Source: an uncultured Armatimonadia bacterium
Lineage (GTDB): Bacteria > Armatimonadota > Zipacnadia > CAVVLO01
Length of the DNA stretch: 64,000 bases
Direction: 5' to 3'
NCBI GenBank assembly: GCA_963749155.1
Contig: CAVVLO010000004.1
Coordinates: 1-64,000 of the forward strand
Position numbers and translations under genes: made by a program. The notes under the pieces were generated by a model. It ran no database searches and had not been told where the DNA came from. It worked only from the letters and a program-made list of their open reading frames with translations. Shown here piece by piece: positions 5,889 to 42,241 of the stretch. Every line of letters starts with the position of its first letter. Position 1 is the stretch's first letter.

Positions 5889-6989
5889 CTAGCTCAGCGC
5901 TTCGTGGCTTTCCTTAAGCTGCTCGATGATGGGGATGTTTTGCGGGCACTTCTCTTCGCAGATCCCGCACTCAACGCAAGCCGAAGCCTTTTGTTTGCCC
6001 TCTTTGTGGTCTGGTCCGAAGCGTCTGTAGAGCCTCTTCGCATGGTCTGTCAGCCCCCAGACCCGGTGATAATTCATCGCGGCAAATATCTCCGGAATGG
6101 CTACCCCCTGTGGGCATGGCAGACAATAGCCGCAGCCGGTGCAATAGAGCTGAGCGAGCTTCTCATTGTCTTTCACGGCCTGGCGGATAGCCCTTAGCTC
6201 AATCTGACTAAGAGGTTCTTCCCGACTGCAGGTAGCTACATTCTCTTCCACCATCTGACGGTTGCCCATCCCCGAAAGCGCTGTGGTTACGTTGGGATTC
6301 GACAGCACAAAACGCAAAGCCAGGTCAGGGATAGAGCTGACCTCGGTCTCAACCATACCGGCTATCTCATCGGAACGCGCGCCCAGTCTTCCACCAGCGA
6401 CCGGTCCCATTATGCAAGCTGCCACACCACTTGCATGAGCGTGGGCGATGGCCTGTTCATTGGCGCGGTCCAGCAGGTTGTACTGGACAATCATCCCCTC
6501 GAATATGCCCGTATCTATCAGCTTCATAATCCCCTCGGGCGAGTCGTGGGAAGACATAGCGATGTGTTTGATGATTCCTTCGTCCCTGGCTTTGATGGCG
6601 GCCTCGAGGCCTCCGTTTGGCTTGCTGAAATGGTTCTCGAAGGCGTGCCAGCTCATCCCGTGAACGACACAGTAGAAGTCGATATAGTCGGTATCGAGCT
6701 TGGTCAGGGTCTGGTCCAGGTTGCGGCGCCAGGCCTCGTTGGTCCATTCACTGATGGCGTTCTTGCTTGAGATGTAGACCTTGTCGCGTCGGCCCTTGAT
6801 GGCCTTACCGACCATTATCTCGCTCTCACCATCGACATACATCATCGCGGTATCGATGTAGTTGATGCCCAGGTCCATCCCATATTGAAGCAGGGCAACT
6901 CCCTCGTCGTGATCTTTGGGCAATCGCATTGCGCCAAAGGTCAGTGTAGACACTTTCTTGCCAGTCTTGCCATACTCTCTATACTGCAT
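5889..6989 (-). CDS. Aldo/keto reductase with C-terminal 4Fe-4S dicluster domain
   Basis: YREYGKTGKKVS.L.FGAMRLP, DTAMMY, SSK catalytic residues; CTGCGYC.PC and CVECGICEEKCPQ Fe-S motifs. Confidence 0.9.
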   Translation of the reverse strand: MQYREYGKTGKKVSTLTFGAMRLPKDHDEGVALLQYGMDLGINYIDTAMMYVDGESEIMVGKAIKGRRDKVYISSKNAISEWTNEAWRRNLDQTLTKLDTDYIDFYCVVHGMSWHAFENHFSKPNGGLEAAIKARDEGIIKHIAMSSHDSPEGIMKLIDTGIFEGMIVQYNLLDRANEQAIAHAHASGVAACIMGPVAGGRLGARSDEIAGMVETEVSSIPDLALRFVLSNPNVTTALSGMGNRQMVEENVATCSREEPLSQIELRAIRQAVKDNEKLAQLYCTGCGYCLPCPQGVAIPEIFAAMNYHRVWGLTDHAKRLYRRFGPDHKEGKQKASACVECGICEEKCPQNIPIIEQLKESHEALS

Positions 6990-7143: not shown

Positions 7144-9480
7144 CTAACGCTCGTGTTTCGTCCTGGCGATTATGTGGTTTTGAAGCTCGCGATCAAGCAG
7201 ACAGAAAAGCTGGCTGAAGCCTGAAACCCTCACGCAGAGGTTGCGGTGCTCTTCCGGCCTCTCCTGGGCAGCTCTCAGCAAGTCTTCGCTAACGACATTC
7301 AGTTGCATCTGCCCAACGCCAAGGGCAATAGCAGTCTGGATTAAATCTACAAACGCCGGGCGATTCTCTGGCCTCAAGAGCACTGGGTCCGCCTCGAGGA
7401 TGGCTGAACTGCTGGCAGCAGCCTTATCATGGGGCAGTTTGGCAAGCGACTGGATAACGGCAGTAAAGCCCTCATGGTCACGCCCTTGAACAGGCGAAAG
7501 ACTATAGGCAAGCGGCTCACCGAACTTGCGCCCTTCCGCCGAAGCTGCCGTGCGCTTGCCATGGTGGAGCATCAAGGTGAAGGTGAACAAATGGCAATGG
7601 AAGCGCCCTCCCGAAACGGTGCGGTGCTTGCCAAGTTCATCGCAGTAGTGACGAGTGATCTCAGCCGCAAAGCCATCCGGAAGCGCTTCGTCGTTGCCAT
7701 ACTTGGGAAGCTTGTGGCGCAAGTAAAGCAGAAGCTCTTCTTGCCCTTCGTAATTCGTTCTCAAAGCCTCCAGCAACTCGGCGCCAGTGACTTTCTTCTC
7801 CTCGAAGACGGCCTTCTGCAAAGCGGCAAGACTGTCAGCGACATTAGGGATGGCCATTGCCGCACTTGAATGGTAGTTATAGCGAGCCCCTCCCTGGATA
7901 ATGTCCTTTCCCTTTGCAACGCAGTCATCGGTCAGCAAAGACAGATAAGGCAGCCTGAACTGGCTTCTGTGCGCCAGCTCAGCCGAGTTGGAGCCATATA
8001 CCGCAAGAGGCGCGAAGTATTCCACCTGCTGCTTGTAGGCTGCGATAACGTCCTCCAGGCTCTTGAATTCGGCAAGTGTGCCTGTTTTTGGACCCACCTG
8101 GACGCCATCAAGCATATCCTTGCCATCGTTCAGGGCGAATTCGAGGCATTTGGCCAAATTTATCCAGTGGCTGACCGCATGAGGATTAGCCATCCCCGGG
8201 AGGGTTATCTCAATACAGCCAATTGCCGCATACCCGCGCGCATCTTCGACAGGCAATCCCTGGGCTACAAGGGCTGGCACCAACGCCTCATCATTGAAGA
8301 AAAAGGGGATGCCTCCCCCCTTGGCAAGCAGATCCACGCAACGCGAGACAAAGGCCCTCGGACTGCCCTTGTGAAGGCGCGCCGACAGGCACCGAACGAA
8401 GCCCATCCCCTCTGTCACATCAAGGATAAGATACGACAGTGGATTGGTAGCGTCAGTCCCATCTGGAAGCTGACCGCCCACCATTGCCTGCTGCACATCG
8501 TAGGGCAGGTAGAGCTTTAGCCAGAAAGCCCCAAGCAGTTCAGCGGCCGCTTTCCAGTCCAGTCTTCCCTCTGCCAAATCGGCTTCGAGATAAGGCCAAA
8601 GATACTGGTCCATCCGACCAAGGCCATTTGCGTTGAGGTTGTCCTCCCAGCAGGTGATCATATGGGCGAACCAAAGGGACTGCAAAGCCTCGTGGAAGGT
8701 GGTCGCAGGCTGTTCTGGCACTCGCTCGCAGATGGTGGCGAGTTGCTCAAGCTCCTCTCGCTTGCCTTCGTCATTCTCAAGCTGAGCCCTTAGCCGTAGC
8801 TCTGCCGCATGCCGCTTGCCAAGGCCTGAGGCCACCTCACAGAACCGTTGCCAGGCCAGTAGATTAGCCCTCTGCTCCGGCGCGTCGGGCATCGCGTGGT
8901 CGAGGGTGGCAAGCCGTTCTTCCACCTGGGCCTTGAGGCCTGAGAAGCCAAGCTTGAGTACCTTCTCGTAGGCGCGAATGCTATGGTTGAGGTCGGTCCC
9001 CCAAATCTCGATGGCTGCGTGTTCTTGCGCCCTCCGAACCTCTTCCGTCCAGGGGGCAACACTGCCATAAAGCTGATAGGCAAAAGGCTCGGTTTTCACC
9101 CCTTTGACCATCCGCTTTTTCTGGGCATCAGAGAGCAAAGGACTAGCCTGAATTCGCTCTACATAATCACCAGGCTGAAGCGGGCGGAAGTTGGTCATCT
9201 CATGGTCGCCACCATGCTCACCAACCAATAATTCGCCCTCGGTATATTTTACCGGCATGCACTCGAGGACTCGCGAAAGCGCTTCGACATTTCTGATTGG
9301 CAGTGGTTGATAACCAGCCTCCAGCCAACCTTCAAGGTAGTAATAATCGCGCAGTATCCCAAAACGAAGCTCATCAGGTTGGGCTATCATCCGCTCGCGC
9401 AAAGGTTTCAGTCGCTTGCTTGGTGATATGGCTTTAGACTTGCGATCTGGAATAATACTTCCCATCCGGACATCCCTCAT
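7144..9480 (-). CDS. Glycyl radical enzyme (PFL2/PflD-like family, substrate unknown)
   Basis: GRMDQYL, GCIE thiyl loop (single Cys), PKYGND and C-terminal RVSGF glycyl radical motif; 778 aa. Confidence 0.85.
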   Translation of the reverse strand: MRDVRMGSIIPDRKSKAISPSKRLKPLRERMIAQPDELRFGILRDYYYLEGWLEAGYQPLPIRNVEALSRVLECMPVKYTEGELLVGEHGGDHEMTNFRPLQPGDYVERIQASPLLSDAQKKRMVKGVKTEPFAYQLYGSVAPWTEEVRRAQEHAAIEIWGTDLNHSIRAYEKVLKLGFSGLKAQVEERLATLDHAMPDAPEQRANLLAWQRFCEVASGLGKRHAAELRLRAQLENDEGKREELEQLATICERVPEQPATTFHEALQSLWFAHMITCWEDNLNANGLGRMDQYLWPYLEADLAEGRLDWKAAAELLGAFWLKLYLPYDVQQAMVGGQLPDGTDATNPLSYLILDVTEGMGFVRCLSARLHKGSPRAFVSRCVDLLAKGGGIPFFFNDEALVPALVAQGLPVEDARGYAAIGCIEITLPGMANPHAVSHWINLAKCLEFALNDGKDMLDGVQVGPKTGTLAEFKSLEDVIAAYKQQVEYFAPLAVYGSNSAELAHRSQFRLPYLSLLTDDCVAKGKDIIQGGARYNYHSSAAMAIPNVADSLAALQKAVFEEKKVTGAELLEALRTNYEGQEELLLYLRHKLPKYGNDEALPDGFAAEITRHYCDELGKHRTVSGGRFHCHLFTFTLMLHHGKRTAASAEGRKFGEPLAYSLSPVQGRDHEGFTAVIQSLAKLPHDKAAASSSAILEADPVLLRPENRPAFVDLIQTAIALGVGQMQLNVVSEDLLRAAQERPEEHRNLCVRVSGFSQLFCLLDRELQNHIIARTKHER

Positions 9481-14225: not shown

Positions 14226-15608
14226 GTGAAACGACCTAATATCGTGATGATTCTGGCCGATGACATGGGGTATGGCGACTTCGGTTGTTTTAGCGAAGGG
14301 CGCACGCGTACTTCAAACCTCGATCGGCTTTGTGCAGAAGGGCTTTGCCTGACTCAGCATTATTCAGGCTCTGCAGTTTGCGCGCCGGCGCGCGCAGCGC
14401 TTATGACAGGCCGATATCCGCACCGGACTGGAGCAATTGACACCCTGGACTCCATTGGCCTTGACCAGCTTTCCCTCTCGGAGACGACGCTTGCCGAGGT
14501 GCTGGCTGGCGCTGGTTATGCCACAGGATTGATAGGCAAATGGCATCTCGGCGCGGCTTTGCCCGAATATCATCCCAACAGCAGAGGCTTCCAGGAGTTT
14601 TGTGGCTTCCGGGGAGGCTGGTCGTATTACTACGACTATGCGCTCGATTACAATCGCACCTTCCGCCGGAGCGATGGCACCTATATGACTGATGTCTTCA
14701 GTCAGGAAGCCTGTAATTTTGTTAGTCGCCATAGCCAGGAGCCTTTTTTCCTCCATGTGACCTACAATGCGCCTCATTTCCCGATGGAACTGCCTGAAGC
14801 CAATCGCCTCCATTTTGCCGACGGCGACTGGACGGACGGCGTAGCGCGTATTTACGGGATGATAGAGCGCATGGACTGGGGCATCGGACAGCTCCTTGAA
14901 ACGCTGGAAGCTCAGGGAGTGCTGGACAACACTTCGTTCCTCTTTACCAGCGATAATGGGCCTCAGTTCGGCGGGCAAGGCGAGCAATGCACCACCCGCT
15001 GGAACTGCAACTGGAATGGCGCCAAGTGTTCTGTCTGGGAGGGAGGTATCCGCGTACCGGCTCTGGTGCGTTGGCCGGATGGCGTTGCAGGTGGCCAGAA
15101 GTATGATGGGATGGCCCATTTCTGCGACTGGTTCCCCACTCTGCTTGCCGCTACCGGAACGGAGTTGCCCTCTGACCTTGCCCTCGATGGCATGAACCTG
15201 CTGCCTGCTCTGCAAGGCCAACCACAAGAGGTGTATCCCACCCGCTGCTGGCAATGGAATCGCTACACTCCGGCTATCGAATCCAACGCGGCCATCCGCG
15301 ATGGAGACTGGAAACTCGTTCGACCTGCTCTGCCACAGACCATGACTATGCTCCAGGAGCACATCGAACAAGACCCAGCCGTGAAACGCAACCAGGAAGG
15401 CTTCGCCCAGCTCTTCCCCTATCGGGAACCTGAGCGAGATTTGTCTAATCCTCCCGCGCCACTGCTCTACAACATCGCTGACGACCCGCTTGAAGCGCAG
15501 GATCTGGCTGGCGTTGAACCTGACAGAGTTCATAAATTGACTACTCAGCTGGAGACCTGGTTCGAAGACGTCGAAGCTGACCGCAGGCTCATCTCCAGAG
15601 GAGGTTAA
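14226..15608 (+). CDS. Cys-type arylsulfatase
   Basis: RPNIVMILADDMG, VCAPARAALMTGR, GKWHLG, APH and SDNG motifs. Confidence 0.92.
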   Translation: MKRPNIVMILADDMGYGDFGCFSEGRTRTSNLDRLCAEGLCLTQHYSGSAVCAPARAALMTGRYPHRTGAIDTLDSIGLDQLSLSETTLAEVLAGAGYATGLIGKWHLGAALPEYHPNSRGFQEFCGFRGGWSYYYDYALDYNRTFRRSDGTYMTDVFSQEACNFVSRHSQEPFFLHVTYNAPHFPMELPEANRLHFADGDWTDGVARIYGMIERMDWGIGQLLETLEAQGVLDNTSFLFTSDNGPQFGGQGEQCTTRWNCNWNGAKCSVWEGGIRVPALVRWPDGVAGGQKYDGMAHFCDWFPTLLAATGTELPSDLALDGMNLLPALQGQPQEVYPTRCWQWNRYTPAIESNAAIRDGDWKLVRPALPQTMTMLQEHIEQDPAVKRNQEGFAQLFPYREPERDLSNPPAPLLYNIADDPLEAQDLAGVEPDRVHKLTTQLETWFEDVEADRRLISRGG

Positions 15609-15611
15609 CCA

Positions 15612-16958
15612 ATGGCAACGAGACGCTCACCTAATCTGGTCTTCTTCTTCAGTGACCAGCAACGCTGGGACACCTGTGGCTGTTACAACCAGGCGATGGA
15701 CATCACGCCCAACCTCGATGGGATGGCCAAAGAGGGAGTGCTCTTCCGCAAGGCCTTTACCTGCCAGCCTGTTTGCGGCCCAGCAAGATCCTGTTTGCAG
15801 ACGGGAAAATATCCGACTGAAACAGGCTGTTTTACCAATGACAGGGCGCTGCCGCAGGATGAAGTGACCATCGCCCATCGGCTGCGCGCTGCGGGTTACA
15901 ACACTGGATACGTCGGCAAATGGCACCTGGCAAGCTACGGCGAAGCTCAAAACTACCACACCAGGCCAACCCCACCCGAGCGGCGCGGGGGCTGGCTTGA
16001 TTACTGGATGGCCGCAGATGTCCTGGAGTTCACCTCTCACGGTTATGATGGCTATGTGTTCGACCGAGATATGAACCAGGTAGATTTCAAAGGCTACCGG
16101 TGCGATTGCGTGACCGATTTTGCGCTCGATTTTCTGCGCCAGCAGAGGGCTGACCAGCCTTTTATGCTCTTTCTTTCACACATCGAGCCCCACCAGCAGA
16201 ATGACCATAACCGGATGGAAGGCCCAGAGGGCTCCAAAGAGCGTTTCGCCTCCTATCCGCTGCCTCCGGACCTCGTTGGTCCTGGCGATTATCTGGAGAA
16301 CTGGCCCGACTATCTTGGCTGCGTGAACAGTCTGGACTATAACCTGGGCAGGGTGCGTCAGACTCTCGCCGAACAAGGACTGGCGGATAACACGCTCGTC
16401 ATCTACACCAGTGACCACGGCTGCCATTTCCATACCCGGAAAGGCGAATACAAGCGCTCATGCCACGAGTCCAGCATCCACGTTCCGCTCGTGATCTCCG
16501 GGCCTGGCTTCGAAGGCGGCAAAGTGGTTGATGAACTCGTTGATTTGATGGACCTGCCTCCCACTCTGATGCAAGCCGCTGACGTGGATGTGCCTGAGAC
16601 GATGCGCGGCAGACCACTTCAGGAGCTTACCGCTGGCACGGCGCGAGACTGGCGGCAGGAGCACTTCTTCCAGCTCAGCGAAACGGTGCTGGGCAGGGGC
16701 GTGCGCACCGCCAGGTGGAAGTATTCCGTCGCGCACGAAGGCGACCCGTCCGCCGCCTGGGCGCAGCCCGACGCGACGGTCTACACGGAGGACTTCCTCT
16801 ACGATCTGCAGGCAGATCCAGCCGAACAGCATAACCTCGTGACCTATCCTGGCCTGGCGGAGGTGCGCGCCGAACTTGCCGAGCGCCTAACGGCGCGGAT
16901 GGTACAAGCCGGCGAGACCGAACCGCGCATCCTGCCAAAGCAGCCGGAGTCCGCCTGA
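15612..16958 (+). CDS. Cys-type sulfatase
   Basis: PNLVFFFSDQQR, VCGPARSCLQTG, GKWHL, EPH and SDHG motifs. Confidence 0.92.
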   Translation: MATRRSPNLVFFFSDQQRWDTCGCYNQAMDITPNLDGMAKEGVLFRKAFTCQPVCGPARSCLQTGKYPTETGCFTNDRALPQDEVTIAHRLRAAGYNTGYVGKWHLASYGEAQNYHTRPTPPERRGGWLDYWMAADVLEFTSHGYDGYVFDRDMNQVDFKGYRCDCVTDFALDFLRQQRADQPFMLFLSHIEPHQQNDHNRMEGPEGSKERFASYPLPPDLVGPGDYLENWPDYLGCVNSLDYNLGRVRQTLAEQGLADNTLVIYTSDHGCHFHTRKGEYKRSCHESSIHVPLVISGPGFEGGKVVDELVDLMDLPPTLMQAADVDVPETMRGRPLQELTAGTARDWRQEHFFQLSETVLGRGVRTARWKYSVAHEGDPSAAWAQPDATVYTEDFLYDLQADPAEQHNLVTYPGLAEVRAELAERLTARMVQAGETEPRILPKQPESA

Positions 16959-16959
16959 C

Positions 16960-18102
16960 ATGAGCTTCTCAGCCCAGGGTGAACGACCTTTCACACTGCT
17001 CATCAAGCCGGCCTCGGCCGATTGTAATCTCGCCTGCGACTACTGCTTCTATCTAGAAAAAAGCGCCCTCTACCCCACCTTGCGGGCGCATCGGATGTCC
17101 CAGGAAGTTCTCGAGCGCCTGGTTTCGAGCTACATGGCAACGCGCCAGCCACAGTATTCTTTCTGCTGGCAGGGCGGCGAGCCGACCTTGATGGGCCTCG
17201 ACTTCTATCAAGAAACCGTCCGGCTCCAACAAGCGCATGGCAAGCCTGGCTCAATCGTCGCAAACGCCTTCCAGACAAATGGCGTGTTAATTGATGCCGA
17301 ATGGGCGCGATTCTTTGAGAAATACCATTTTCTCGTTGGCTTGAGCCTCGATGGGCCGGCCGAGTTGCACAACCACTACCGCCGCCACTTGTCGGGGGCG
17401 CCTTCTCACGACGAGGTGCTGCGAGGGCTTGCCCACCTCAAGCGCGCTGGAGCTGAGTTCAACATCCTCGTCCTCGTCACACCTGTGAATGCTGGCAAGG
17501 CGCGGCAGGTTTACGAATATCTGCGCGAGCTGGATGTGGACTTTATGCAGTTCATCCCTTGCGTTGAATTCGACAAGACGGGGCAGCCGCTGCCCTTTAC
17601 GGTGTCAGCGCGCGAGTGGGGTCAGTTCCTGTGTGATGTGTTTGATGTCTGGCGCGAAGCCGGCGATGAGCGGCGTGTCTCGGTGCGCCTGTTTGACTCG
17701 CTGCTGACCGTGATGGTCCATAACCAGTACAATGTCTGCCACCTGGGTCGCAATTGCTGCCAGTACCTCGTCGTAGAACATAACGGAGATATCTACCCCT
17801 GCGATTTCTTCGTCGAGGAAGAGCGCAAACTGGGCAATCTGATGGAGGGCGAATGGGCAGACTTTCTCTCATCGCCCCTCTACTCGGCCTTCGGCGCCCA
17901 GAAAGCGCGCTGGAATGAGGCCTGCAAGAGCTGCAAGTGGCTCAAATATTGCTCCGGCGATTGCCTCAAACATCGGTTTACCAGCGAGTGTGACCCCCGC
18001 AACCTGTCCTTCCTGTGCGCAGGTTGGCAGCGTTTCTTTGAACACGCCCTTCCCTGTCTTGAGGAATTGGCCGAGCAACTTCGTGAGGAGCAGCGGCCAT
18101 GA
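16960..18102 (+). CDS. Anaerobic sulfatase-maturating enzyme (radical SAM/SPASM)
   Basis: IKPASADCNLACDYCFY, WQGGEP, YPCDFF and C-terminal CKSCKWLKYCSGDC SPASM cysteines; directly follows two sulfatases. Confidence 0.92.
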   Translation: MSFSAQGERPFTLLIKPASADCNLACDYCFYLEKSALYPTLRAHRMSQEVLERLVSSYMATRQPQYSFCWQGGEPTLMGLDFYQETVRLQQAHGKPGSIVANAFQTNGVLIDAEWARFFEKYHFLVGLSLDGPAELHNHYRRHLSGAPSHDEVLRGLAHLKRAGAEFNILVLVTPVNAGKARQVYEYLRELDVDFMQFIPCVEFDKTGQPLPFTVSAREWGQFLCDVFDVWREAGDERRVSVRLFDSLLTVMVHNQYNVCHLGRNCCQYLVVEHNGDIYPCDFFVEEERKLGNLMEGEWADFLSSPLYSAFGAQKARWNEACKSCKWLKYCSGDCLKHRFTSECDPRNLSFLCAGWQRFFEHALPCLEELAEQLREEQRP

Positions 18103-27272: not shown

Positions 27273-29072
27273 ATGGAACTCCGTCTTATTCTTGCTCTAC
27301 TGCTCTGCCTGCTGCTTGCCCTGCCCGCCCTGGCGGTCGAGGTGCGCACCACGCGCTTCGACGACACCAGAGAAGCCCTTGTCAATCCGATGATGGGCTG
27401 GGTCGCGCATCACTATGACAACGTGATATCAAGTTATGGCAGCAAGCTGTCCTATGACGACACTCTGGACGACTTCCCAGGCCTTTCCACTATCTACCTG
27501 CGCCTGGCCTGGAGCTATATCGAGCCTGAAGAGGGCCAATACAACTGGAGCTGGGTGGATGGCCCAGCCCAGCGCTGGATTGACAAAGGCCTGAAGGTGG
27601 CTTTCCGTTTTTCCTCGACCGAATCCTTTATGCGCTACGCGACGCCCAAGTGGGTTGAGGACGCAGGCGCAGAGGGCTACAACTTCACCCCTGGGAAGGA
27701 AGACCCAACCGGCCCCTACTGGGAGCCTGAATATGACGACCCGGTCTTCCTGGCCAAGCTGGAGAACTTCCTCGCCGCAGCGGCGAAGCGCTACGAGGGC
27801 AACCCGAACGTGGCTTTCGTGGATGTCGGCAGTTTCGGCGTGTGGGGCGAAGGCCATACCTGGGCCAGCACCCAGCGCAAATGGCCAGCCTCGACGCTCA
27901 TCCGCCATATGGAGCTTTATCGCAAGCACTTCCCCAAAACGCTGCTCGCGGCCAACGACGACTTCAGCTTTCAGGGGGATGAGACCATCCAGTACGCGCT
28001 GGAGCAGGGGATGACCTTGCGCGACGACAGCATTATGGTGGCCAACAAGCCCAACTCCTGGTACCACGCCGAGATGGCACAGGACTTCTGGCCCCATCAA
28101 CCGGTCGTCCTGGAAAGCGAGCATTATGGCGGGTCGGTAGGACGCGGGGCCTGGTATCCCGGCGGCTATCTGGAGGCCATCGAGGCCTACCATGCCAGCT
28201 ATGCATCCATCCACTGGTGGCCGAGAGAGTTTCTCGAGGCTGAGCGCGCGGAGATAGACCAGATCAACCAGCGACTCGGCTACAGGCTTCAACTGAGAGA
28301 AGCCTCCTGGCCCTCCGAGGTGAAGCCCGGAGAGGCCTTTGAGCTTGCTTCCAAATGGGCCAACGCGGGGGTTGCGCCCTGCTACCCAGGCGGTCACCTC
28401 GCCTGGACACTGCTGACTCCCAAGGGCGGGGTAGCGACAGTCGCTGTCGATGGCGACTTCGACGTCCGGACGTTAGAGGTCGGCCCTTCCGGTGAGGCGC
28501 CAGAGCAGCTTGTCGTCTCGAAGCTGCGGCTTCCGGAGATTCTGGCGCCCGGTGAATACACTCTGGCGGTCTCGGTAGGTCAGCTCGACGGCACGCCGAC
28601 CCTTGCGCTGCCACTGGCAGGCAAGCTGCCTTACAAGCGTTATCTCGTGGGCAAGCTTTCTATCGTAGGTGATTACAAACTAGAGGTCGGCGCGCTAACT
28701 CGCCAGCCTGACGGCAAGTGGGGCCTGCCGGTAACCTGGATTGTCCGCGGAGAGTGCCCTCAGGGCACAAGGCCTTTCGCGCATTTCGACCTGGGTGGCG
28801 CTATTGCTTTCCAGGGAGGGATGAGCGAACTCGAGGGCCAGCCGGTAGAGGCTTATGACTTCCCCCTCGCGCCTGGCACGTATTCGACAGTGGTCTCTTT
28901 CGAGGCGCCCCAGGTGATGGAAACCACAACTTACCAGGTTTTGTTTGGGCTTTGGGATCAGCCCAACGACTTGCGTCTGCTGGGAGAGGGGCAGGAGATG
29001 GACGGGCGTATCCTCATCGGAGAACTGACCCTTCAGCCCGATGGCACGGCAAGCTTCACGCCAGCGCGCTAG
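27273..29072 (+). CDS. DUF4832/DUF4874-family beta-galactosidase-like secreted protein
   Basis: GAGGAGG RBS, signal peptide, NPMMGW, YLRLAWSYIEPEEGQYNW, GVWGEGH and RLGYRL. Confidence 0.7.
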   Translation: MELRLILALLLCLLLALPALAVEVRTTRFDDTREALVNPMMGWVAHHYDNVISSYGSKLSYDDTLDDFPGLSTIYLRLAWSYIEPEEGQYNWSWVDGPAQRWIDKGLKVAFRFSSTESFMRYATPKWVEDAGAEGYNFTPGKEDPTGPYWEPEYDDPVFLAKLENFLAAAAKRYEGNPNVAFVDVGSFGVWGEGHTWASTQRKWPASTLIRHMELYRKHFPKTLLAANDDFSFQGDETIQYALEQGMTLRDDSIMVANKPNSWYHAEMAQDFWPHQPVVLESEHYGGSVGRGAWYPGGYLEAIEAYHASYASIHWWPREFLEAERAEIDQINQRLGYRLQLREASWPSEVKPGEAFELASKWANAGVAPCYPGGHLAWTLLTPKGGVATVAVDGDFDVRTLEVGPSGEAPEQLVVSKLRLPEILAPGEYTLAVSVGQLDGTPTLALPLAGKLPYKRYLVGKLSIVGDYKLEVGALTRQPDGKWGLPVTWIVRGECPQGTRPFAHFDLGGAIAFQGGMSELEGQPVEAYDFPLAPGTYSTVVSFEAPQVMETTTYQVLFGLWDQPNDLRLLGEGQEMDGRILIGELTLQPDGTASFTPAR

Positions 29073-29731
29073 AGGCCAGGCTTGACACCTTCCACGCGCA
29101 GGCAAGGGCAGAAGGCCGTGTGATAGTCCTGAGCAGGTGGAGTGACGACCTCGACAAGGCCGGCGCCTTCCAGCAGGGCCTTGAGCGACTCGGCCGTGTA
29201 GCCCCACTTGTGCACATCACCGACGAACCGGTCCGAGCTAAAAACATAGGCCAGCAGTTGAGGGTCGCGCTCCTTGAGGTAGCGCTTCGCAAGCCCTGCG
29301 AAGTCCGGCACTTCCAGTACCAGCTTGCCGCCGGATGCAAGCAGACTCGCCCAATGCTCAACCGCGCGCTCGGCTTCCTTGCGGTTGAAGTGTTCCAGCG
29401 CGTGATAACACTGGATCTCGGTGACGCTGCCTTCAGGGAAAGGCAATTTGCGGATGTCGCATAGCAGGTCAGTAGCAGGTGTCTCGCGCCAGTCGATGTT
29501 GATGAAGCCGGGCAGCGCGTGGCTACCGCAAGCCAGTTGCAGCCTCACCGGCGCTTTGGGGGCAAAAGGCTTCAGCTTCCAGGCAAACCTGAGCAGAGCC
29601 GGCTCCAGCGAGCGTCTTACCGCATCCCTCTCTTCGAGGAGTTTCTCTTTTACTCTGTGCGGTGCGCCATCAAGTCCAAGACCGGTAAGGCGGCCGATTC
29701 CAGCGCACCAGGCTTTGAGCAACTGCTTCAT
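29069..29731 (-). CDS. Class I SAM-dependent methyltransferase-like protein (Methyltransf_11)
   Basis: LQLACG...GFINID, DIRKLPF, HALEH and L..GG.L.LEVPD motifs. Confidence 0.75.
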   Translation of the reverse strand: MKQLLKAWCAGIGRLTGLGLDGAPHRVKEKLLEERDAVRRSLEPALLRFAWKLKPFAPKAPVRLQLACGSHALPGFINIDWRETPATDLLCDIRKLPFPEGSVTEIQCYHALEHFNRKEAERAVEHWASLLASGGKLVLEVPDFAGLAKRYLKERDPQLLAYVFSSDRFVGDVHKWGYTAESLKALLEGAGLVEVVTPPAQDYHTAFCPCLRVEGVKPGL

Positions 29732-29764
29732 CTAGTGACTCCCAGGCAGGTTATTGGCAGCAAG

Positions 29765-29791
29765 ATTCGCCAGTCAAACCTTCTCTCCTGC
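29765..29791 (-). promoter_or_regulatory. SigH-like promoter motif GCAGGA-N15-GCGAAT
   Basis: Best match to the recurring motif; 33 nt upstream of the methyltransferase start. Confidence 0.55.
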
Positions 29792-29805
29792 CGCCTTCGG
29801 CCAGT

Positions 29806-30610
29806 CTAGGCGACTTCGCTTTCCACCTGCTTGCCCCGCAATCCCTGCTCCAGGCCCTCTGCCAGAGCTGCCAGGCACCCTTCGCAGCCTGCGCCTTCTC
29901 TGCACCCGCGCCTGAGCTGGTCGGCTTTGTCCCCTGCCAGGCAGTCCAGCAGACGACTGGCTGCGCAGAGCTCCGGCCTGCCCGCCGTCCCAGAAATCTT
30001 CAGCGGATCTCTTGGCAGCGCCTGCAGACTCGCTTCCAGCTTGTCCCTTGTTCTGGGCAACGCAAGCTGCTCATAGGCCAGTGCTCTGCGTCCCGAAAGG
30101 CCAGAATCTTCTTAGCTCCAGTTCAAGTGAAGGGTCTACCTTCGCAATCAACTGGGCTGCCCTCAAAGCCTCTTCCCTTCGACTTCTTGGCGTGATTAGC
30201 GCATCAGGCCTGAATACCAGCAGCGCCGCCGCAAGCGCCAGACTGCTGGAGAGACGCGCCAGGGTCAGCGGAGCCTCTTTGCTCTCCTCGGACTGCTCTC
30301 TTAAAAGAGAGACCACCGTCACCTGCCCTGACAATACCTTGTAAGCGCGTTGCACCTCGGGCAGCTCTGACTCCCGGACAACCTCAAGCCGCTCTCCACA
30401 CAGATTGCGATAAAGCAACTCCACAGGATCTACCTGTTCCTTTATCGAACCTGCGCCCTCTGGGCACCGCGCAAGAGCTTCGAGATCAGCGATAAACAGC
30501 ACGGCGCGTTCTCCCTGCCAGCCTGCGAGCTGACTTGCAGTTAAAACCTGGGCCAGTCGCAATTCGGGGCTGGGCACTTCATAAGCAAGTACAGTAGCCT
30601 GCGCGCTCAT
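29806..30610 (-). CDS. Degenerate tryptophanyl-tRNA synthetase paralog (about 267 aa when joined) lacking HIGH and KMSKS and retaining a C-terminal four-Cys motif; apparent +1 frameshift at about 30105-30114
   Basis: GGAGGAG RBS. Collinear TrpRS-like segments: PSPELRLAQ (PTGKLHLGH), LFIADLEAL (FFIADYHAL), ESELPE (QSQVPE), VTVVSLLR, LAAALLVF (QAADILAF), GLSGRRALAY (GLDGRKMSKSY), RDP....GRPELC, GCREG-AGCEGCL..LAE. Confidence 0.7.
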
Positions 30611-30632
30611 ACTGGATCACTCCTCCTGGCAA

Positions 30633-30671
30633 TAAAAAAGACCGAGGGCTTTTACGCTCTGCCCGCGGTCT
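30633..30671 (-). terminator. Attenuator terminator in the leader of the TrpRS-like gene
   Basis: AGACCGCGGGC-loop-GCCCTCGGTCT (10 of 11 pairs) followed by a T-run, about 20 nt before the start codon. Confidence 0.8.
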
Positions 30672-30745
30672 GGGTTACCTCTTCGTTTGATTTGGGTCTT
30701 CTTAGAAGACCTTCATCCTCGCGCCACCAGAAAGCCGCTGGGCAG
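30659..30745 (-). promoter_or_regulatory. Antiterminator helix of the attenuator
   Basis: CTGCCC-A-GCGG-CTT-TCTGG (30727-30745) pairs with CCAGA-CCGC-GGGCAG (30659-30673): 15 bp that sequester the terminator 5' arm. Confidence 0.7.
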
Positions 30746-30800
30746 TCTTGCGCCAGCGCCAAAAGTAAAAGTATCCATACTGTCCGGTGGTGTAATTCAT
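30702..30800 (-). CDS. Aromatic-amino-acid leader peptide MNYTTGQYGYFYFWRWRKTAQRLSGGARMKVF
   Basis: 32 codons; 7 of 9 consecutive codons (30753-30779) are Tyr/Phe/Trp, immediately before the antiterminator strand. Confidence 0.75.
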   Translation of the reverse strand: MNYTTGQYGYFYFWRWRKTAQRLSGGARMKVF

Positions 30801-30809
30801 TCTGTATTC

Positions 30810-30839
30810 AGCATAACACCCCCACTTGACCGAGGTCAA
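30810..30839 (-). promoter_or_regulatory. Sigma70-type promoter TTGACC-N18-TATGCT (extended -10) for the leader transcript
   Basis: The -10 element ends 9 nt before the leader ATG, implying a near-leaderless mRNA; no SD sequence precedes that ATG. Confidence 0.55.
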
Positions 30840-30886
30840 CCAGTCTTTGGCACAAGAATTGCATCTGCAGATTTTGAGCAAGTGTA

Positions 30887-30915
30887 TTGTCAAGAAAGAA
30901 AGTGGGTATTATAAT
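30887..30915 (+). promoter_or_regulatory. Sigma70-type promoter TTGTCA-N17-TATAAT
   Basis: Near-consensus elements in an AT-rich intergenic region upstream of the RNase H-like gene and ruvCAB. Confidence 0.7.
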
Positions 30916-30941
30916 ACAGGTAAGGCCACAAACTTTTGTTT

Positions 30942-30957
30942 GCACTATATGTTGTTA
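30942..30957 (+). promoter_or_regulatory. Putative NrdR box
   Basis: GCACTATATGTTGTTA resembles acaCwAtATaTwGtgt; the expected partner box is only weakly evident. Confidence 0.35.
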
Positions 30958-31094
30958 GTCTGAAGTCCTGGCCACTAGGTAATTGAGGGTCGAAGCACCA
31001 GGCAGACCGGGCAGCTCCCTCGCCCACAAACACAAGAGAGGCAGTCGTGCTACCGCAACAAGCTTCGGCACCAAGCTCAAATGAGGTGCGGCAG

Positions 31095-31526
31095 ATGGCA
31101 CAAAAAACTCTCTACGGACTTGTAAACAGGTTGGAACAGGCGACCGGTGCTTTATGGCGTGTCTTCGTGACCGATTATGAAGGCCATTTCGCCGAAGAAT
31201 TCGACCTTGCAGAACTCGATGATGGCCCAACAAAGGGCGCCTACAGGGGCACTTTGGCTGCGATGGAAGTCGCCGAGAGCCAGCGCGCCACGTCGTTCTT
31301 GCTGTTGGTAGATAACCATACTGCTGTGCGCGAACTCAACCGGGAAGTGCCCCGCTCCGATCCTGGCCGTGACCTGGAGTTTATGCTTATCCGGGGGCTT
31401 GCGCACCAGTTCAGCAAGTTCAAGCTCTACCATCCCGGCGACAAGCTCTGGGGCAGACAACCTGACGAGCTTTCGCGCAGACTGCGCTCTTTGAAGGAGG
31501 CCGGCGCGCCAGTTGCCGCAGGCTAG
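31095..31526 (+). CDS. RNase HI-like (RVT_3-type) protein with degenerate active site
   Basis: GAGGTG RBS; AYRGTLAAMEVA....A......VDN..AVRELN....QF..F...H......PDELSR follows the RNase HI fold, but the DG Asp and the AEY Glu are missing. Confidence 0.6.
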   Translation: MAQKTLYGLVNRLEQATGALWRVFVTDYEGHFAEEFDLAELDDGPTKGAYRGTLAAMEVAESQRATSFLLLVDNHTAVRELNREVPRSDPGRDLEFMLIRGLAHQFSKFKLYHPGDKLWGRQPDELSRRLRSLKEAGAPVAAG

Positions 31527-31551
31527 AGAGCAAGCCTCGCGCCTGGCGCTG

Positions 31552-31560
31552 TGTTATAAT
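31552..31560 (+). promoter_or_regulatory. Extended -10 element TGTTATAAT upstream of ruvC
   Basis: Perfect TGnTATAAT 24 nt before the ruvC start. Confidence 0.5.
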
Positions 31561-31584
31561 CCACCAGCTTGAAGGCAGGGAGCG

Positions 31585-32121
31585 TTGGACTTGCTGGTGC
31601 TAGGCGTTGACCCGGGTCTGGTTACCACCGGCTACGGGCTTGTAGAGTTTCGCGAAGGCAATTGCCACCTCGTGCGCGAGGCGGGGTGTGTGCGTCCCCC
31701 CAAAACAGCCCCCCTCGCACTTCGGCTTGCCAAGTTACATTCTGCTCTCTCAGAGCTTATTGCCGAATACTCCCCCACCGTGATGGTGCTTGAAGATCTG
31801 TTTTCCAACTATAAGGTGCCAAAGACGGCAATCCTGATGGGCCACGCGCGCGGGGTGCTGTGTCTCACGGCAGGACAAGCGGGCATCCCGGTAGAAACTT
31901 ATACCGCCACTTTCGTGAAGCGCGCGATTACCGGCGCCGGACACGCTTCCAAGCAGCAGATGCAGGCTACCGTAGCTCAGCGGCTGAAGCTCCTGGAACC
32001 ACCCAGGCCGCCCGACGTCGCTGACGCGCTGGCGCTCGCGCTAGCCTATATCGAAGCCACTACCAATCCTCATGCCCAGCTACTTGCTCTTGGCAGGGGA
32101 CGGAAACGGAGCCATCCATGA
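31585..32121 (+). CDS. ruvC: Crossover junction endodeoxyribonuclease RuvC
   Basis: LGVDPG...TGYG, E..F, GHARG, VK....G.G.A.K.Q and DVADALA. Confidence 0.95.
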   Translation: MDLLVLGVDPGLVTTGYGLVEFREGNCHLVREAGCVRPPKTAPLALRLAKLHSALSELIAEYSPTVMVLEDLFSNYKVPKTAILMGHARGVLCLTAGQAGIPVETYTATFVKRAITGAGHASKQQMQATVAQRLKLLEPPRPPDVADALALALAYIEATTNPHAQLLALGRGRKRSHP

Positions 32122-39413: not shown

Positions 39414-39426
39414 AGGTCTCCTCACT

Positions 39427-42241
39427 TCAGGCGCTCTTGCGTCCACCGAAGGCCCCACCCGAGGCGACGGCGGTGACGGACCGTTCGAGCCAGAGGTTGC
39501 CTCCATCGGCCAGCGTGCCTACCTTGTCGCGGCGAGAGACAGTCACCTGGGGCGCAAGCGCGCCAGCCTGGAGTGCTTTCTCTCTTGCCCGAGCACGTGA
39601 AAGACTCACCGCGGCGTCGGTCGCGCTGGCTAGGCTCGGAGAACTCCAGTCGCTCTTCCGTGCCATATAAAACATAGTTGGAAGATTCGCCAGGCCGGAT
39701 GAGTACCTCTTCTCGCACGACCACTTCGCTGCCGATGGCGCCTATCGCATTAGCGACGTCGGCGTGTTCAGGCACGATTAACTCGGCGGCGAGATGCTCC
39801 AAAACCGGCGGCATCAGGGCCCCAGCGGGCGCGCCCAGCGCGATGACAGGCCGGCGCAGCGACAGACCCACGCCCAGCCCCTGTCCCTCATCGTGGAAAG
39901 CTCTTTCCAGCAGGAAAGCCCAGTCCTCCGGCAAGTCCTGCAGAGCGCGCTGCTCGAAGGAGACCTCTCGCCGGACAAGCTCTTCAAAGAGCCGCCTGGT
40001 GATGGCCTCTCGGGCCAGCGCCAGCGTCTCCTCGGCGCTCTTGCCAAGCAGCGTCGCGAAAGCCGTGAGCATCAGACGCGCAGCCTCAGCGTCCCAGCGA
40101 GTGAATTCTCCCGTCACATGAAGCAGGTCGGTGGGGGTCAGCGCGGCCCTTTTTACGATGCCGAGTTCCTCGAGGCGCTTCAGCGGCAGCAACTGGTATG
40201 AGGCCAGCCCCAGCTCCCAGGACGCCTCAAGCGCGGGGATTGGCCCTGAATCCAGCAGCTTCAGCAGGCGCTTCTCTGTTGGGCTCGGGTCGAAGCGCGT
40301 CTTTGCGCCGGGCACCAGCACGTCCAGCACCGCGGCGCTCGAGGCCCCTGACCATCTGCGCGGATCGAAGCTCTCGTAAAACTTCCTGGCCCGCTCGCTG
40401 GTCGCCGCGAGGTAGCAGACAGGCAGGTTGCGCCTAGGCCCAACCTTCAGCCGGCGCTCTCGGTCGAAATCCAGCCTGCTGTCACCGCCGAGGCCTACGG
40501 TGCAGATCTCGACGACGTCGACGCTCATCGTATACTGGCCAACGCGGGCGCCCTCCGGCGAGACCGCCACATGCCCCTCCTGCAGTATGGCGCAATCGGT
40601 GGTCGTGCCGCCGATATCTATAACCAGCGCCTCATCGAGGCCGGTCAGCAGCTTTGCGCCGCTTACGCTGGCGGCGGGGCCGGAGAGGATTGTCTCAATA
40701 GGCCGGGCGCGCGCCACGACCTCGTCAACTGGCGTCCCGTCGCCCTTCACGACCATCAGCTTGCCAGGCACGCTGAAATCCTGCAGCGCCTGGTGGACGG
40801 ACTCTATCAGATGCTGGATGACCGGCATCAGCCTCGCGTTCGCAACCGCGGTCTGAGCGCCCCGGATGGCGTTAAGCCGCCGGGACAGTTCATGCGCGCA
40901 GATAACCGGCACATCCGAGACCTCCCGGATGAGTTCTCTTACACGCGCCACCTGCACTGGATTGCGCACCGCGCCATAGGCCGCGATGACCAGCGCCGCG
41001 CAGTGGTCGTGTTCGAGCAGTGTCTGGATGGCTTTTCTGGCCGCGACCTCGTCCAGTGGTTCGTTTACCTCACCTGTGATCGTAACGTGCCCTGGCACCC
41101 ACTTCACGGGCTTATGACCGATATCCTTGAGGAAGGACTCCCAGGGAGAGAGGACAATCAGCCCGACTTTGTGGCCGCGCCCCTCGACTATCGCATTGGT
41201 GGCGAGGGTCGTCGAAAGGGAAGTGACCTCGACTCGCGCGAGCAACTCGGCAGGCAACCCTTCCAGCGCGCCTCGTATCCCAATCACCAGGTCGTGATAA
41301 GTGGTCAGCGACTTGGCCTTCGCCAGCACCTGCTGCGCGCCCAGGTCGTAAAGCACCGCGTCGGTGTAGGTGCCCCCCGCGTCAATCCCGAGCCCCAGGC
41401 CCTCCGGCGCAAGCTGCTCTCCGGCTGCCTCGAACACGGTCACCTCTTCAGCCGAAAGCGCCTCGGCGAAGTCGCTCGAATCGATTGGCACAGCCTCGAG
41501 CAGGCGCTCATCTCCCGTAGACCTGGCCCGGTGATGAGGCGGCAGCACGAATATCCGCGCCTCTTGCTCCCAGTCGCCTGCAAGGAGAAGCCGCAGCAGT
41601 TCCGCATCACCTTCTAGCTGTTCATAGGTCCAGTCGAACACTTCGGCCATCTCGCGGGTGAATTCGGCCGCCTCTTCCTCGCCCTCGAAGCCCAGGTTGA
41701 TGTAAGCAGCGCGGCTGTAATGCTGCCGCCACCTGTCCCAGAAAGCCAGGATATGTTCGGCGTTCTCCTCGCCGTATTTATCAGCCAGGTCGCGATACTC
41801 CGGATGCTGCCCATAGCCTACTTTGGCATAGTTGGAATATAGCTCCGTGGCTTCGCGGTTCTGCGGGTTGATCTCTTCCTTTAGCCAGCCAAGGGTATGG
41901 TAGAAGGTGCCGGGATTCTTGCGGAACTGCTTCAGGTATTTCTCACGTGACCCAAGGAAGAGCGTAATGCAGTCGTGGGCGCGAGGGATTATGACGGGTA
42001 TCTCTCTTGACACCAGGCCAGCCAGCCCTCTGCCGCACAGGCCATAGAAAGTGACGACTGCATCATACCGGCCCGAACTGGAGGCCTCGTCAATCGCCTC
42101 TTGCAAAAGCAAACGCAGGTCATTGGGGCGCGAATGCAGGCCCGCATCAAGCAGTTTGAAATCCACTTCGTGAGGGCCTTGCTTTCCAAGCGCCTCCACA
42201 TACGGCGAGAAGACGCCGCAACCAAGCACTTTGAGTCTCAT
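39427..42241 (-). CDS. DUF1638 - hydantoinase/oxoprolinase A fusion protein; apparent frameshift at about 39635
   Basis: N-terminal GLH..P..L, YGLCG and PRAHDCITLFLGS (DUF1638); GIDAGGTYTD, STTLATNAIVEG, ILSGPAAS, DIGGTTTD and ANAIGA (hydantoinase A). The natural C-terminus is in ORF 39427..39675. Confidence 0.8.

Follow-up and report, generated by a model that had tools for sequence, protein, structure and literature searches.

Introduction

What is made, and when, from a gene that is collinear with tryptophanyl-tRNA synthetase (TrpRS), lacks both class I signature motifs, and stands behind a leader peptide crowded with aromatic residues? The question is raised by a locus at positions 29806-30839, on the minus strand, of a 64,000-nt stretch of contig CAVVLO010000004.1 from an uncultured Armatimonadia bacterium. 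The whole stretch is called the window here. A sequence-only reading of the locus had proposed that a leader-peptide attenuator controls a catalytically dead TrpRS paralog. In this study, we aimed to evaluate the regulatory region, the gene, and its homologs. The locus has the anatomy of a classical ribosome-mediated (leader-peptide) attenuator, and comparisons of sequence and predicted structure indicate that the gene is descended from TrpRS, probably from a bacterial one of the Fe-S type. The reading that we favor, and consider probable with clear room for doubt, is that a non-aminoacylating TrpRS-derived protein is made by transcriptional read-through when charged tRNA for Phe, Tyr, or Trp is short.

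Results

Organization of the locus

All elements listed by the sequence-only reading (promoter, leader, antiterminator, terminator, Shine-Dalgarno sequence (SD), and gene) were present on the minus strand. The features, including the neighboring methyltransferase gene, are as follows; ORF denotes open reading frame.

30810-30839, minus strand: sigma-70-like promoter; TTGACC (30839-30834), 18-nt spacer with TG, TATGCT (30815-30810); 9 of 12 consensus matches
30702-30800, minus strand: leader ORF; ATG at 30800, TAA at 30702, 32 codons, no SD
30753-30779, minus strand: regulatory codons 8-16, Tyr Gly Tyr Phe Tyr Phe Trp Arg Trp
30734-30760, minus strand: hairpin 1:2 (anti-antiterminator); 5' arm formed by the codons UGG CGC UGG CGC; -16.7 kcal/mol
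30726-30746, minus strand: segment 2, the 5' strand of the antiterminator; duplex with segment 3, -26.1 kcal/mol
30695-30711, minus strand: stop-codon hairpin; 7 bp, with the leader UAA in the loop
30657-30674, minus strand: segment 3, the 3' strand of the antiterminator and also the 5' arm of the terminator
30634-30671, minus strand: intrinsic terminator; 10-bp stem (30671-30639) with one mismatch, 11-nt loop, six U; -17.4 kcal/mol
30620-30627, minus strand: Shine-Dalgarno sequence AGGAGGAG, 9 nt ahead of the ATG at 30610
29806-30610, minus strand: TrpRS-derived gene; 267 codons when one base at 30111/30112 is omitted
30111-30112, minus strand: extra single base (frameshift), missing from the contigs of runs X1, X2, and X3
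29878-29967, minus strand: four conserved Cys (215, 235, 241, and 244); candidate [4Fe-4S]-type motif of the TrpRS anticodon-binding domain, with shortened spacing
29069-29731, minus strand: class I S-adenosylmethionine (SAM)-dependent methyltransferase (PF08241, E 1.7e-6), 75 nt downstream of the TrpRS-derived gene

Promoter-like sites were scored over 29000-31600; two of this quality were found, against 0.6 ± 0.7 in shuffled sequence. The -10 hexamer ends 10 nt before the leader ATG. On a transcription start predicted from these promoter-like hexamers, it is plausible that the leader ORF is nearly leaderless, as had been suggested. The terminator ends about 6 nt ahead of the SD. Because the terminator abuts the SD and leaves no room for a separate promoter, the gene would be transcribed only by read-through of the terminator. 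A simple terminator scan, with the loop limited to 3-8 nt, missed this terminator, which we attribute to its 11-nt loop.

Mutually exclusive helices and predicted effect of a stalled ribosome

Seven residues encoded by leader codons 8-16 are aromatic, and both of the Phe residues are specified by TTT, which is the minor one of the genome's Phe codons (24%). The Trp-Arg-Trp-Arg codons constitute segment 1, which pairs with the next 12 nt (segment 2) at a predicted -16.7 kcal/mol. The alternative 2:3 duplex (30746-30726 with 30674-30657) was evaluated against dinucleotide shuffles of the upstream partner; its predicted energy of -26.1 kcal/mol compares with -15.1 ± 2.8 kcal/mol in the shuffles. 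This strength was matched by 3 of 2000 shuffles of the whole upstream partner, and by none of 2000 in a second test in which only the adjacent 25 nt were shuffled. The antiterminator and terminator that had been claimed were thus recovered: helices 1:2, 2:3, and 3:4 exclude one another and segment 1 carries regulatory codons, as in a classical leader-peptide attenuator.

Without a ribosome, the minimum free energy (MFE) fold of the full 175-nt leader consisted of hairpin 1:2 and the terminator. When a ribosome footprint was placed on codons 11-13 (Phe, Tyr, and Phe), the MFE fold flipped to the antiterminator. A ribosome at codons 17-27 covers segment 2. A cmscan search of the region 29000-32000 against Rfam, which accepted E up to 10, matched neither a T-box nor the Trp_leader or Phe_leader family; its only matches were three at chance level to unrelated families. 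No run of TRAP-type triplet repeats was seen on inspection of the locus sequence by eye.

Rarity and conservation of the leader

An aromatic run by itself is not rare. The genome contains 22 short ORFs with at least six aromatic residues in nine, a number of the same order as the binomial expectation, and four with at least seven in nine. A terminator within 220 nt was found for 1 of the 22, solely the leader described here, and this leader directly precedes one of the four TrpRS/TyrRS-related genes in the genome (TyrRS, tyrosyl-tRNA synthetase). The genome's own trpS and the trpS genes of its relatives abut their preceding gene, so there is no room at those genes for a similar leader.

For strain comparison, Logan contigs from four runs (X1, X2, X3, and X7), each from a different study, were compared over 29750-30900. 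In X2, no differences occurred over 30676-30900, which takes in the leader and the promoter, compared with 2.1% elsewhere in the compared stretch (Fisher P 0.014). X3 likewise had none over 30696-30900, compared with 3.6% elsewhere in the stretch (Fisher P 0.0013). Most variants are common to X2 and X3, and these two runs therefore amount essentially to one comparison. A degenerate pattern for the nine-residue leader motif had no matches in metagenome contigs.

A single gene under purifying selection

In the window as assembled, the coding region appears as an ORF of 179 aa (30610-30071) followed by an ORF in a second frame (30060-29806). The sequence-only reading had described two ORFs to be joined. 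Both do belong to the TrpRS-derived gene, but they are a single gene split by one extra base. All three contigs that bridge 30111/30112 (X1, X2, and X3) lack this base, and the X7 contig ends at the site. With the base omitted, a continuous frame of 267 codons results. Because the bridging contigs of other runs lack the extra base, the frameshift in the window is read as most likely an assembly error or a lesion private to the strain.

The 179-aa ORF was searched against 1.84 billion representative proteins, and five matches were obtained, one of them spurious. The spurious match, P0004 (581 aa, six stretches), is a repetitive protein and was rejected as a family member. Two further homologs, P0006 and P0007, came from a word-index search. 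The family as analyzed comprises seven sequences: the window copy, P0001, P0002, P0003, P0005, P0006, and P0007. P0001 (267 aa) is 92% identical to the window copy and spans both window ORFs. P0006 has 267 aa, and P0007 has 269 aa and is 64% identical to P0001. P0003 (260 aa) is 38% identical and uninterrupted. The uninterrupted homologs (P0001, P0003, P0006, and P0007) thus measure 260-269 aa with pairwise identities of 38-93%, and across five members, with identity down to 38%, 52 columns are invariant.

The strain variants listed include at least 22 synonymous and at least 14 non-synonymous changes, in a sequence with 209 synonymous and 592 non-synonymous sites. The ratio of non-synonymous to synonymous polymorphism (pN/pS) among the variants listed is 0.22, and the binomial probability of at least 22 synonymous changes in 36 under neutrality is 1e-5. 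The prediction of orthologs held by purifying selection, framed earlier as a dN/dS-type test, agrees with these data: uninterrupted homologs exist and pN/pS is 0.22. A pN/pS of about 0.22 together with intact homologs argues that the gene is not a pseudogene in neutral decay.

Genomic placement of the family was also sought. A search of genome contigs and of metagenome contigs with the family alignment gave no confirmed locus. No full-length homolog was found in 79 genomes of the class or in a sample of 401 genomes of the phylum, where only partial matches occurred; no relative of the same order is present among the species representatives. All but one of the partial matches were C-terminal. 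The ORFs were read at 8 of the 10 loci matched, and all 8 were ordinary trpS. The one match to the N-terminal ORF among 40 genomes of relatives (G004, E 0.005) was judged from its sequence and neighbors to be a CRISPR-associated ORF beside a Cas1-like gene and was taken as chance.

Relationship to tryptophanyl-tRNA synthetase

An AlphaFold2 model of the protein had a mean predicted local distance difference test (pLDDT) score of 64. Over residues 1-170, the means of ten-residue blocks were mostly 70-86, with 58-64 at residues 1-10 and 101-120; residues 195-267 were below 50. In Foldseek, all of the matches listed were TrpRS or TyrRS, the best being 3tzl_B (E 5.4e-9). Comparison of the model with 48,161 chains by VIA-align gave Z 12-16 for TyrRS and TrpRS, including Z 15.2 for Mycobacterium tuberculosis TrpRS (root-mean-square deviation 3.0 over 180 residues) and Z 13.8 for Thermotoga maritima TrpRS (2g36, Foldseek E 1.3e-7). 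Cyclodipeptide synthases (CDPSs) scored Z 10.9-11.4, and other class I synthetases about 10.

The five-member family alignment was compared by hhalign with four bona fide TrpRS (the genome's own and those of three relatives). The probability was 95.7%, with E 1e-8 over 248 collinear columns. By BLASTP, the C-terminal fragment matched the genome's own TrpRS (E 4e-4), and the N-terminal ORF gave no match to it (E 2). The family profile matched the C-termini of relatives' TrpRS with E down to 5.8e-9. A genome search with PF00579 missed the locus and picked up tyrS, trpS, and a third paralog. The claim of a class Ic TrpRS/TyrRS fold in collinear arrangement is upheld by Foldseek, VIA-align, and hhalign, which agree, and the gene is, on these sequence and model comparisons, a descendant of TrpRS, probably of a bacterial Fe-S-type enzyme.

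In the ESM Atlas, the clusters nearest to P0001 carry PF00579 (scores 0.86-0.87); this is a lead only. The nearest of them (0.87, with the same reservation) is a tRNA-synt_1b family of 233 aa, 92% viral (Uroviricota), which hints that short TrpRS/TyrRS-like proteins may occur in phages too.

The genome encodes a second TrpRS-derived paralog of 522 aa (C1:148669-150234, minus strand, the same as L003:1471-3039:-), which adjoins tyrS. It is of archaeal type: NCBIfam PRK12285 is matched at E 6.7e-52, below cut-offs, and Pfam tRNA-synt_1b at 22.6 bits. By eye, MTLQH stands in place of HIGH and VMNPE at the place of KMSKS. In the N-terminal part, residues 49-126 weakly resemble chorismate mutase type II (E 1e-4, below cut-off), and a Cys motif lies near the C-terminus. 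One weak partial match (E 5e-14) to this paralog was found among 78 other genomes of the class.

Catalytic motifs lost and residues retained

The separate, intact trpS that had been anticipated is present; it encodes 332 aa with HLGN and KMSKS. The genome also has a normal tyrS. The alignments bear out the statement that the TrpRS-derived gene lacks both class I signature motifs, as KMSKS is deleted and HIGH is degenerate. At the HIGH site, HLGN of the genome's own TrpRS is replaced by RLAQ or RLVQ in the window copy, P0001, P0006, and P0007, and a partial form is kept in P0002 (TLGH) and P0003 (EVGH). The KMSKS loop is deleted in every member in both the MAFFT and the hhalign alignments. A 15-residue stretch of the Trp pocket, before the specificity helix and GEDQ, is also deleted. 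GEDQ itself aligns, with moderate alignment confidence, to PRSQ, PKSE, ARSL, or EPSA. The Trp-specificity Asp corresponds to Asp132 of Bacillus stearothermophilus TrpRS (10.64898/2026.03.23.713518). Its column holds A, M, or V, again with moderate alignment confidence. On account of this loss of catalytic motifs, we infer that the protein cannot activate Trp or charge tRNA.

Of TrpRS, the protein retains the Rossmann core and, from the anticodon-binding domain, the part with the Cys motif; the C-terminal ~40 residues of TrpRS are absent from the family. The four Cys occupy homologous columns in P0001, P0003, P0006, P0007, and the window copy, with spacings of x19-20, x5, and x2. In the Rossmann half, the polar residues Tyr10, Glu11, Glu80, Ser81, Ser101, Gln106, and Thr116 are invariant.

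Gene neighborhood

Between the TrpRS-derived gene and the methyltransferase gene, the simple terminator scan with its loop limit of 3-8 nt listed no terminator-like site, and from the sequence the two genes are possibly co-transcribed. There are no tRNA genes in the 64-kb window. Upstream and divergent lie a 159-aa ORF and then ruvC, ruvA, and ruvB, of which ruvA and ruvB were named by eye from their translations. The best database relatives of RuvB, with 62% identity, belong to metagenome-assembled genomes of Armatimonadota. The 159-aa ORF (31047-31526, plus strand) has no Pfam or NCBIfam family and looks RNase H-like by eye. It stands behind a near-consensus promoter-like site at 30887-30915 on the plus strand (TTGTCA, 17 nt, TATAAT; 11 of 12), which is directed away from the attenuator.

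Glycoside hydrolase and sulfatase genes make up most of the remaining window. A pair of neighboring sulfatase genes with the gene of a radical-SAM/SPASM protein behind it (14226-18102, plus strand) resembles an anaerobic sulfatase-maturase arrangement, and a third sulfatase gene is located at 4278-5816. On the minus strand are a glycyl-radical enzyme (7144-9480; PFL-like plus Gly_radical) and an aldo/keto reductase with a 4Fe-4S dicluster domain (5889-6989). A 939-aa ORF (39422-42241, minus strand) with DUF1638 and the N-terminal and A domains of hydantoinase/oxoprolinase lies among glycoside hydrolase genes.

Discussion

Proposed mechanism

In the mechanism that we propose, the leader would be translated, and a shortage of charged tRNA(Phe), tRNA(Tyr), or tRNA(Trp) would make the ribosome stall at codons 11-16 (Phe Tyr Phe Trp Arg Trp); this trigger is suggested by the anatomy of the leader. 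Segment 1 would be covered by the stalled ribosome, which would leave segment 2 available for pairing with the terminator's 5' arm. Once the antiterminator had formed, transcription would read through, and the TrpRS-derived protein would be made. The protein may act by means of the anticodon-binding module that it has kept, by means of its rebuilt pocket, or by both. The roles put forward by the sequence-only reading, those of an allosteric subunit, a tRNA sensor, or a heterodimer partner of the true TrpRS, are candidates, as is induction by starvation. Purifying selection and new invariant polar residues in a protein that has lost its catalytic motifs point to a new function, which would most likely be that of a non-aminoacylating binder of tRNA(Trp) or of an aromatic-related ligand, acting as a regulator or sensor.

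A bolder version is tentative, and we would not expect it to hold in full. The family would be the first bacterial TrpRS-derived pseudo-synthetase family; it would bear an Fe-S cluster, recognize the anticodon of tRNA(Trp), and use a rebuilt acidic pocket for a new job, under a leader responsive to the combined charging state of tRNA(Phe), tRNA(Tyr), and tRNA(Trp). If this were true, candidate jobs would include a starvation-induced sensor or sequestering factor for tRNA(Trp), a HisZ-like allosteric partner, and a trans-editing deacylase. The 522-aa paralog with its chorismate-mutase-like domain would then suggest that the TrpRS scaffold has been used repeatedly in this lineage as a sensor of aromatic amino acids.

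Several observations weigh against the attenuator and new-function reading. Translation of the leader ORF is an assumption, as no SD precedes it. When the footprint is on Trp codon 14 or 16, the full-length MFE fold is still the terminator, and a footprint drawn tightly (3' edge at A-site +11) does not flip the fold at any codon. In the 152-nt intermediate, the MFE fold has the 2:3 helix even without a ribosome; termination must therefore rest on kinetic trapping of 1:2, and the support that folding predictions lend to the switch is thermodynamic only. The conservation of the leader is known among near-identical strains only, and X1, with one synonymous leader change, shows no significant excess conservation (P 0.19). 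A crude scan of 139 terminator-plus-ORF sites in the genome gave no other convincing leader-peptide attenuator. The predicted linkage to aro or trp genes failed, as none were found among the 41 other ORFs scanned in the window. On the protein side, Pfam has no match to the window ORFs, P0001, P0002, or P0003 (for P0001-P0003 at E up to 1), NCBIfam has none to P0001, P0003, or P0007, and a sequence profile search of the PDB did not recognize the family. Three of the seven family sequences, counting the window copy, are in their predicted form broken or truncated: P0005 parts from P0003 beyond about residue 107, and the divergence of P0002 begins past the first Cys. The spacing of the Cys region differs from that of TrpRS and its model pLDDT is below 50, which makes Fe-S and tRNA binding a conjecture.

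Alternative explanations

Some of these points favor a leader that is insensitive to aminoacyl-tRNA supply. The ORF might be untranslated and its terminator constitutive, leaky, or controlled by a protein; the leader might be an arrest peptide of reversed polarity in the manner of TnaC, which responds to free ligand; or it might be a small protein with its own terminator. The missing SD, the aromatic runs as strong as this one that occur by chance (22 short ORFs with at least six in nine, four of them with at least seven), the marginal thermodynamic switch at the Trp codons, and the failure of the crude scan to find another such attenuator in the genome all fit this explanation. It is nevertheless unlikely, since the Trp-Arg-Trp-Arg codons are themselves segment 1, the complementarity between segments 2 and 3 far exceeds that of the shuffles, and the terminator abuts the SD, which makes regulated read-through the sole route of expression; moreover, no Rfam T-box or riboswitch was matched and no TRAP-type repeats were seen by eye. 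As for the gene, a decaying trpS duplicate that kept an ancestral attenuator and has become functionless would account for the frameshift in the window copy, for the disruption of P0005 and probably of P0002, for the lost catalytic motifs, and for the extreme rarity of the family (five matches, one spurious, in 1.84 billion representatives). The simple trpS pseudogene was, however, rejected on the bridging contigs, the intact homologs, and pN/pS: the frame is restored in all three contigs, four uninterrupted homologs of 260-269 aa reach down to 38% identity with 52 invariant columns among five members, and selection is evident at P 1e-5. The strong SD is retained as well, and we regard decay as very improbable.

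A new enzyme rather than a binder or regulator is rather unlikely too. In that case the remodeled acidic and polar pocket would catalyze a new reaction, and the candidates are a CDPS-like reaction dependent on aminoacyl-tRNA, trans-editing of mischarged tRNA(Trp), or a step that feeds the downstream methyltransferase. CDPSs resemble the protein in size and in having neither HIGH nor KMSKS, the structure search scored them at Z 10.9-11.4, and they use aminoacyl-tRNAs (PMC3105412). The seven invariant polar residues, kept at 38% identity, resemble a maintained site, and a SAM methyltransferase is encoded 75 nt beyond the gene in the same orientation. Against this, TyrRS and TrpRS outscore CDPSs (Z 12-16), and no Pfam family, that of the CDPSs included, is matched at E up to 1. 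The family also keeps a TrpRS-type C-terminal Cys domain, which CDPSs are not known to have. Induction under a shortage of charged aromatic tRNAs is ill suited to an enzyme that consumes them, but would suit an editing enzyme. We therefore retain, as the preferred reading, a tRNA-responsive leader in front of a non-aminoacylating TrpRS-derived protein.

Comparison with known systems

The regulatory device adds one more example to a known class. In Streptomyces coelicolor, the trpRS1 attenuator has reportedly been studied by experiment, and the leaders of Streptomyces trpS paralogs are said to use Trp codons only. Predictions published in 2005 place classical attenuators in front of Streptomyces leuS and trpS2 (the latter in S. 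avermitilis), and likewise in front of pheST in gamma-proteobacteria (PMC1262725). As with Streptomyces trpS2, a leader with cognate codons and a terminator/antiterminator precede a second TrpRS-type gene, with a housekeeping trpS besides. Unlike the Streptomyces genes, which encode active synthetases, some of them antibiotic-resistant, the gene described here has a product without catalytic motifs, and its leader mixes Tyr, Phe, and Trp codons. A mixed aromatic leader is also known: the AroR leader with Phe-Tyr-Phe precedes aroF in Corynebacterium glutamicum and acts by ribosome stalling (Neshat et al., 2014, cited in PMC11802643). AroR differs, as far as the account in that source goes, in that it controls 3-deoxy-D-arabino-heptulosonate 7-phosphate (DAHP) synthase, has no Trp codons, and belongs to another phylum. 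The novelty claimed for the module consequently stands in part. Its regulatory half was already in print, as the trpS-paralog attenuators and AroR; no TrpRS-derived non-catalytic equivalent was found. In the literature searched, judged by title and abstract, no bacterial non-catalytic TrpRS paralog was found, and the protein family appears undescribed.

For the protein, the nearest counterpart in architecture is the T. maritima TrpRS TM0492, in which a C-x22-C-x6-C-x2-C motif binds a [4Fe-4S] cluster next to the anticodon (PMC2954223). The family has the same fold and four Cys at the homologous place of the anticodon-binding domain. According to the same source, TM0492 has HIGH and KMSKS and charges tRNA, whereas the family has C-x19/20-C-x5-C-x2-C and is without the last ~40 residues. 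With regard to synthetase paralogs in other roles, HisZ, which has HisG as its partner, is usually linked to his genes; no such linkage to an enzyme of the cognate pathway was found among the 41 other ORFs scanned in the window. HisZ is HisRS-like and has no aminoacylation activity (PMC5388404). Like HisZ, the regulatory subunit of ATP phosphoribosyltransferase, the protein described here would be a synthetase paralog that lost aminoacylation and was kept for another role, one connected with the same amino acid. HisZ differs in being derived from class II, and neither a partner nor a pathway linkage was found among the genes of the 64-kb window. In CDPSs, neither HIGH nor KMSKS occurs in the TyrRS/TrpRS-like Rossmann core, which measures ~230-260 aa (PMC3105412). 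They are a separate sequence family; no Pfam match was obtained here, and the structural match is lower (Z ~11 vs 12-16).

The family is very rare and is found only in uncultured bacteria, probably Armatimonadota, which limits its general reach. Synthetase paralogs without aminoacylation, such as HisZ and the CDPSs, have repeatedly revealed new biology. In the present case the attenuator indicates when the protein is wanted and the retained Cys motif indicates which ancestral part is still important, and both clues make the function directly testable.

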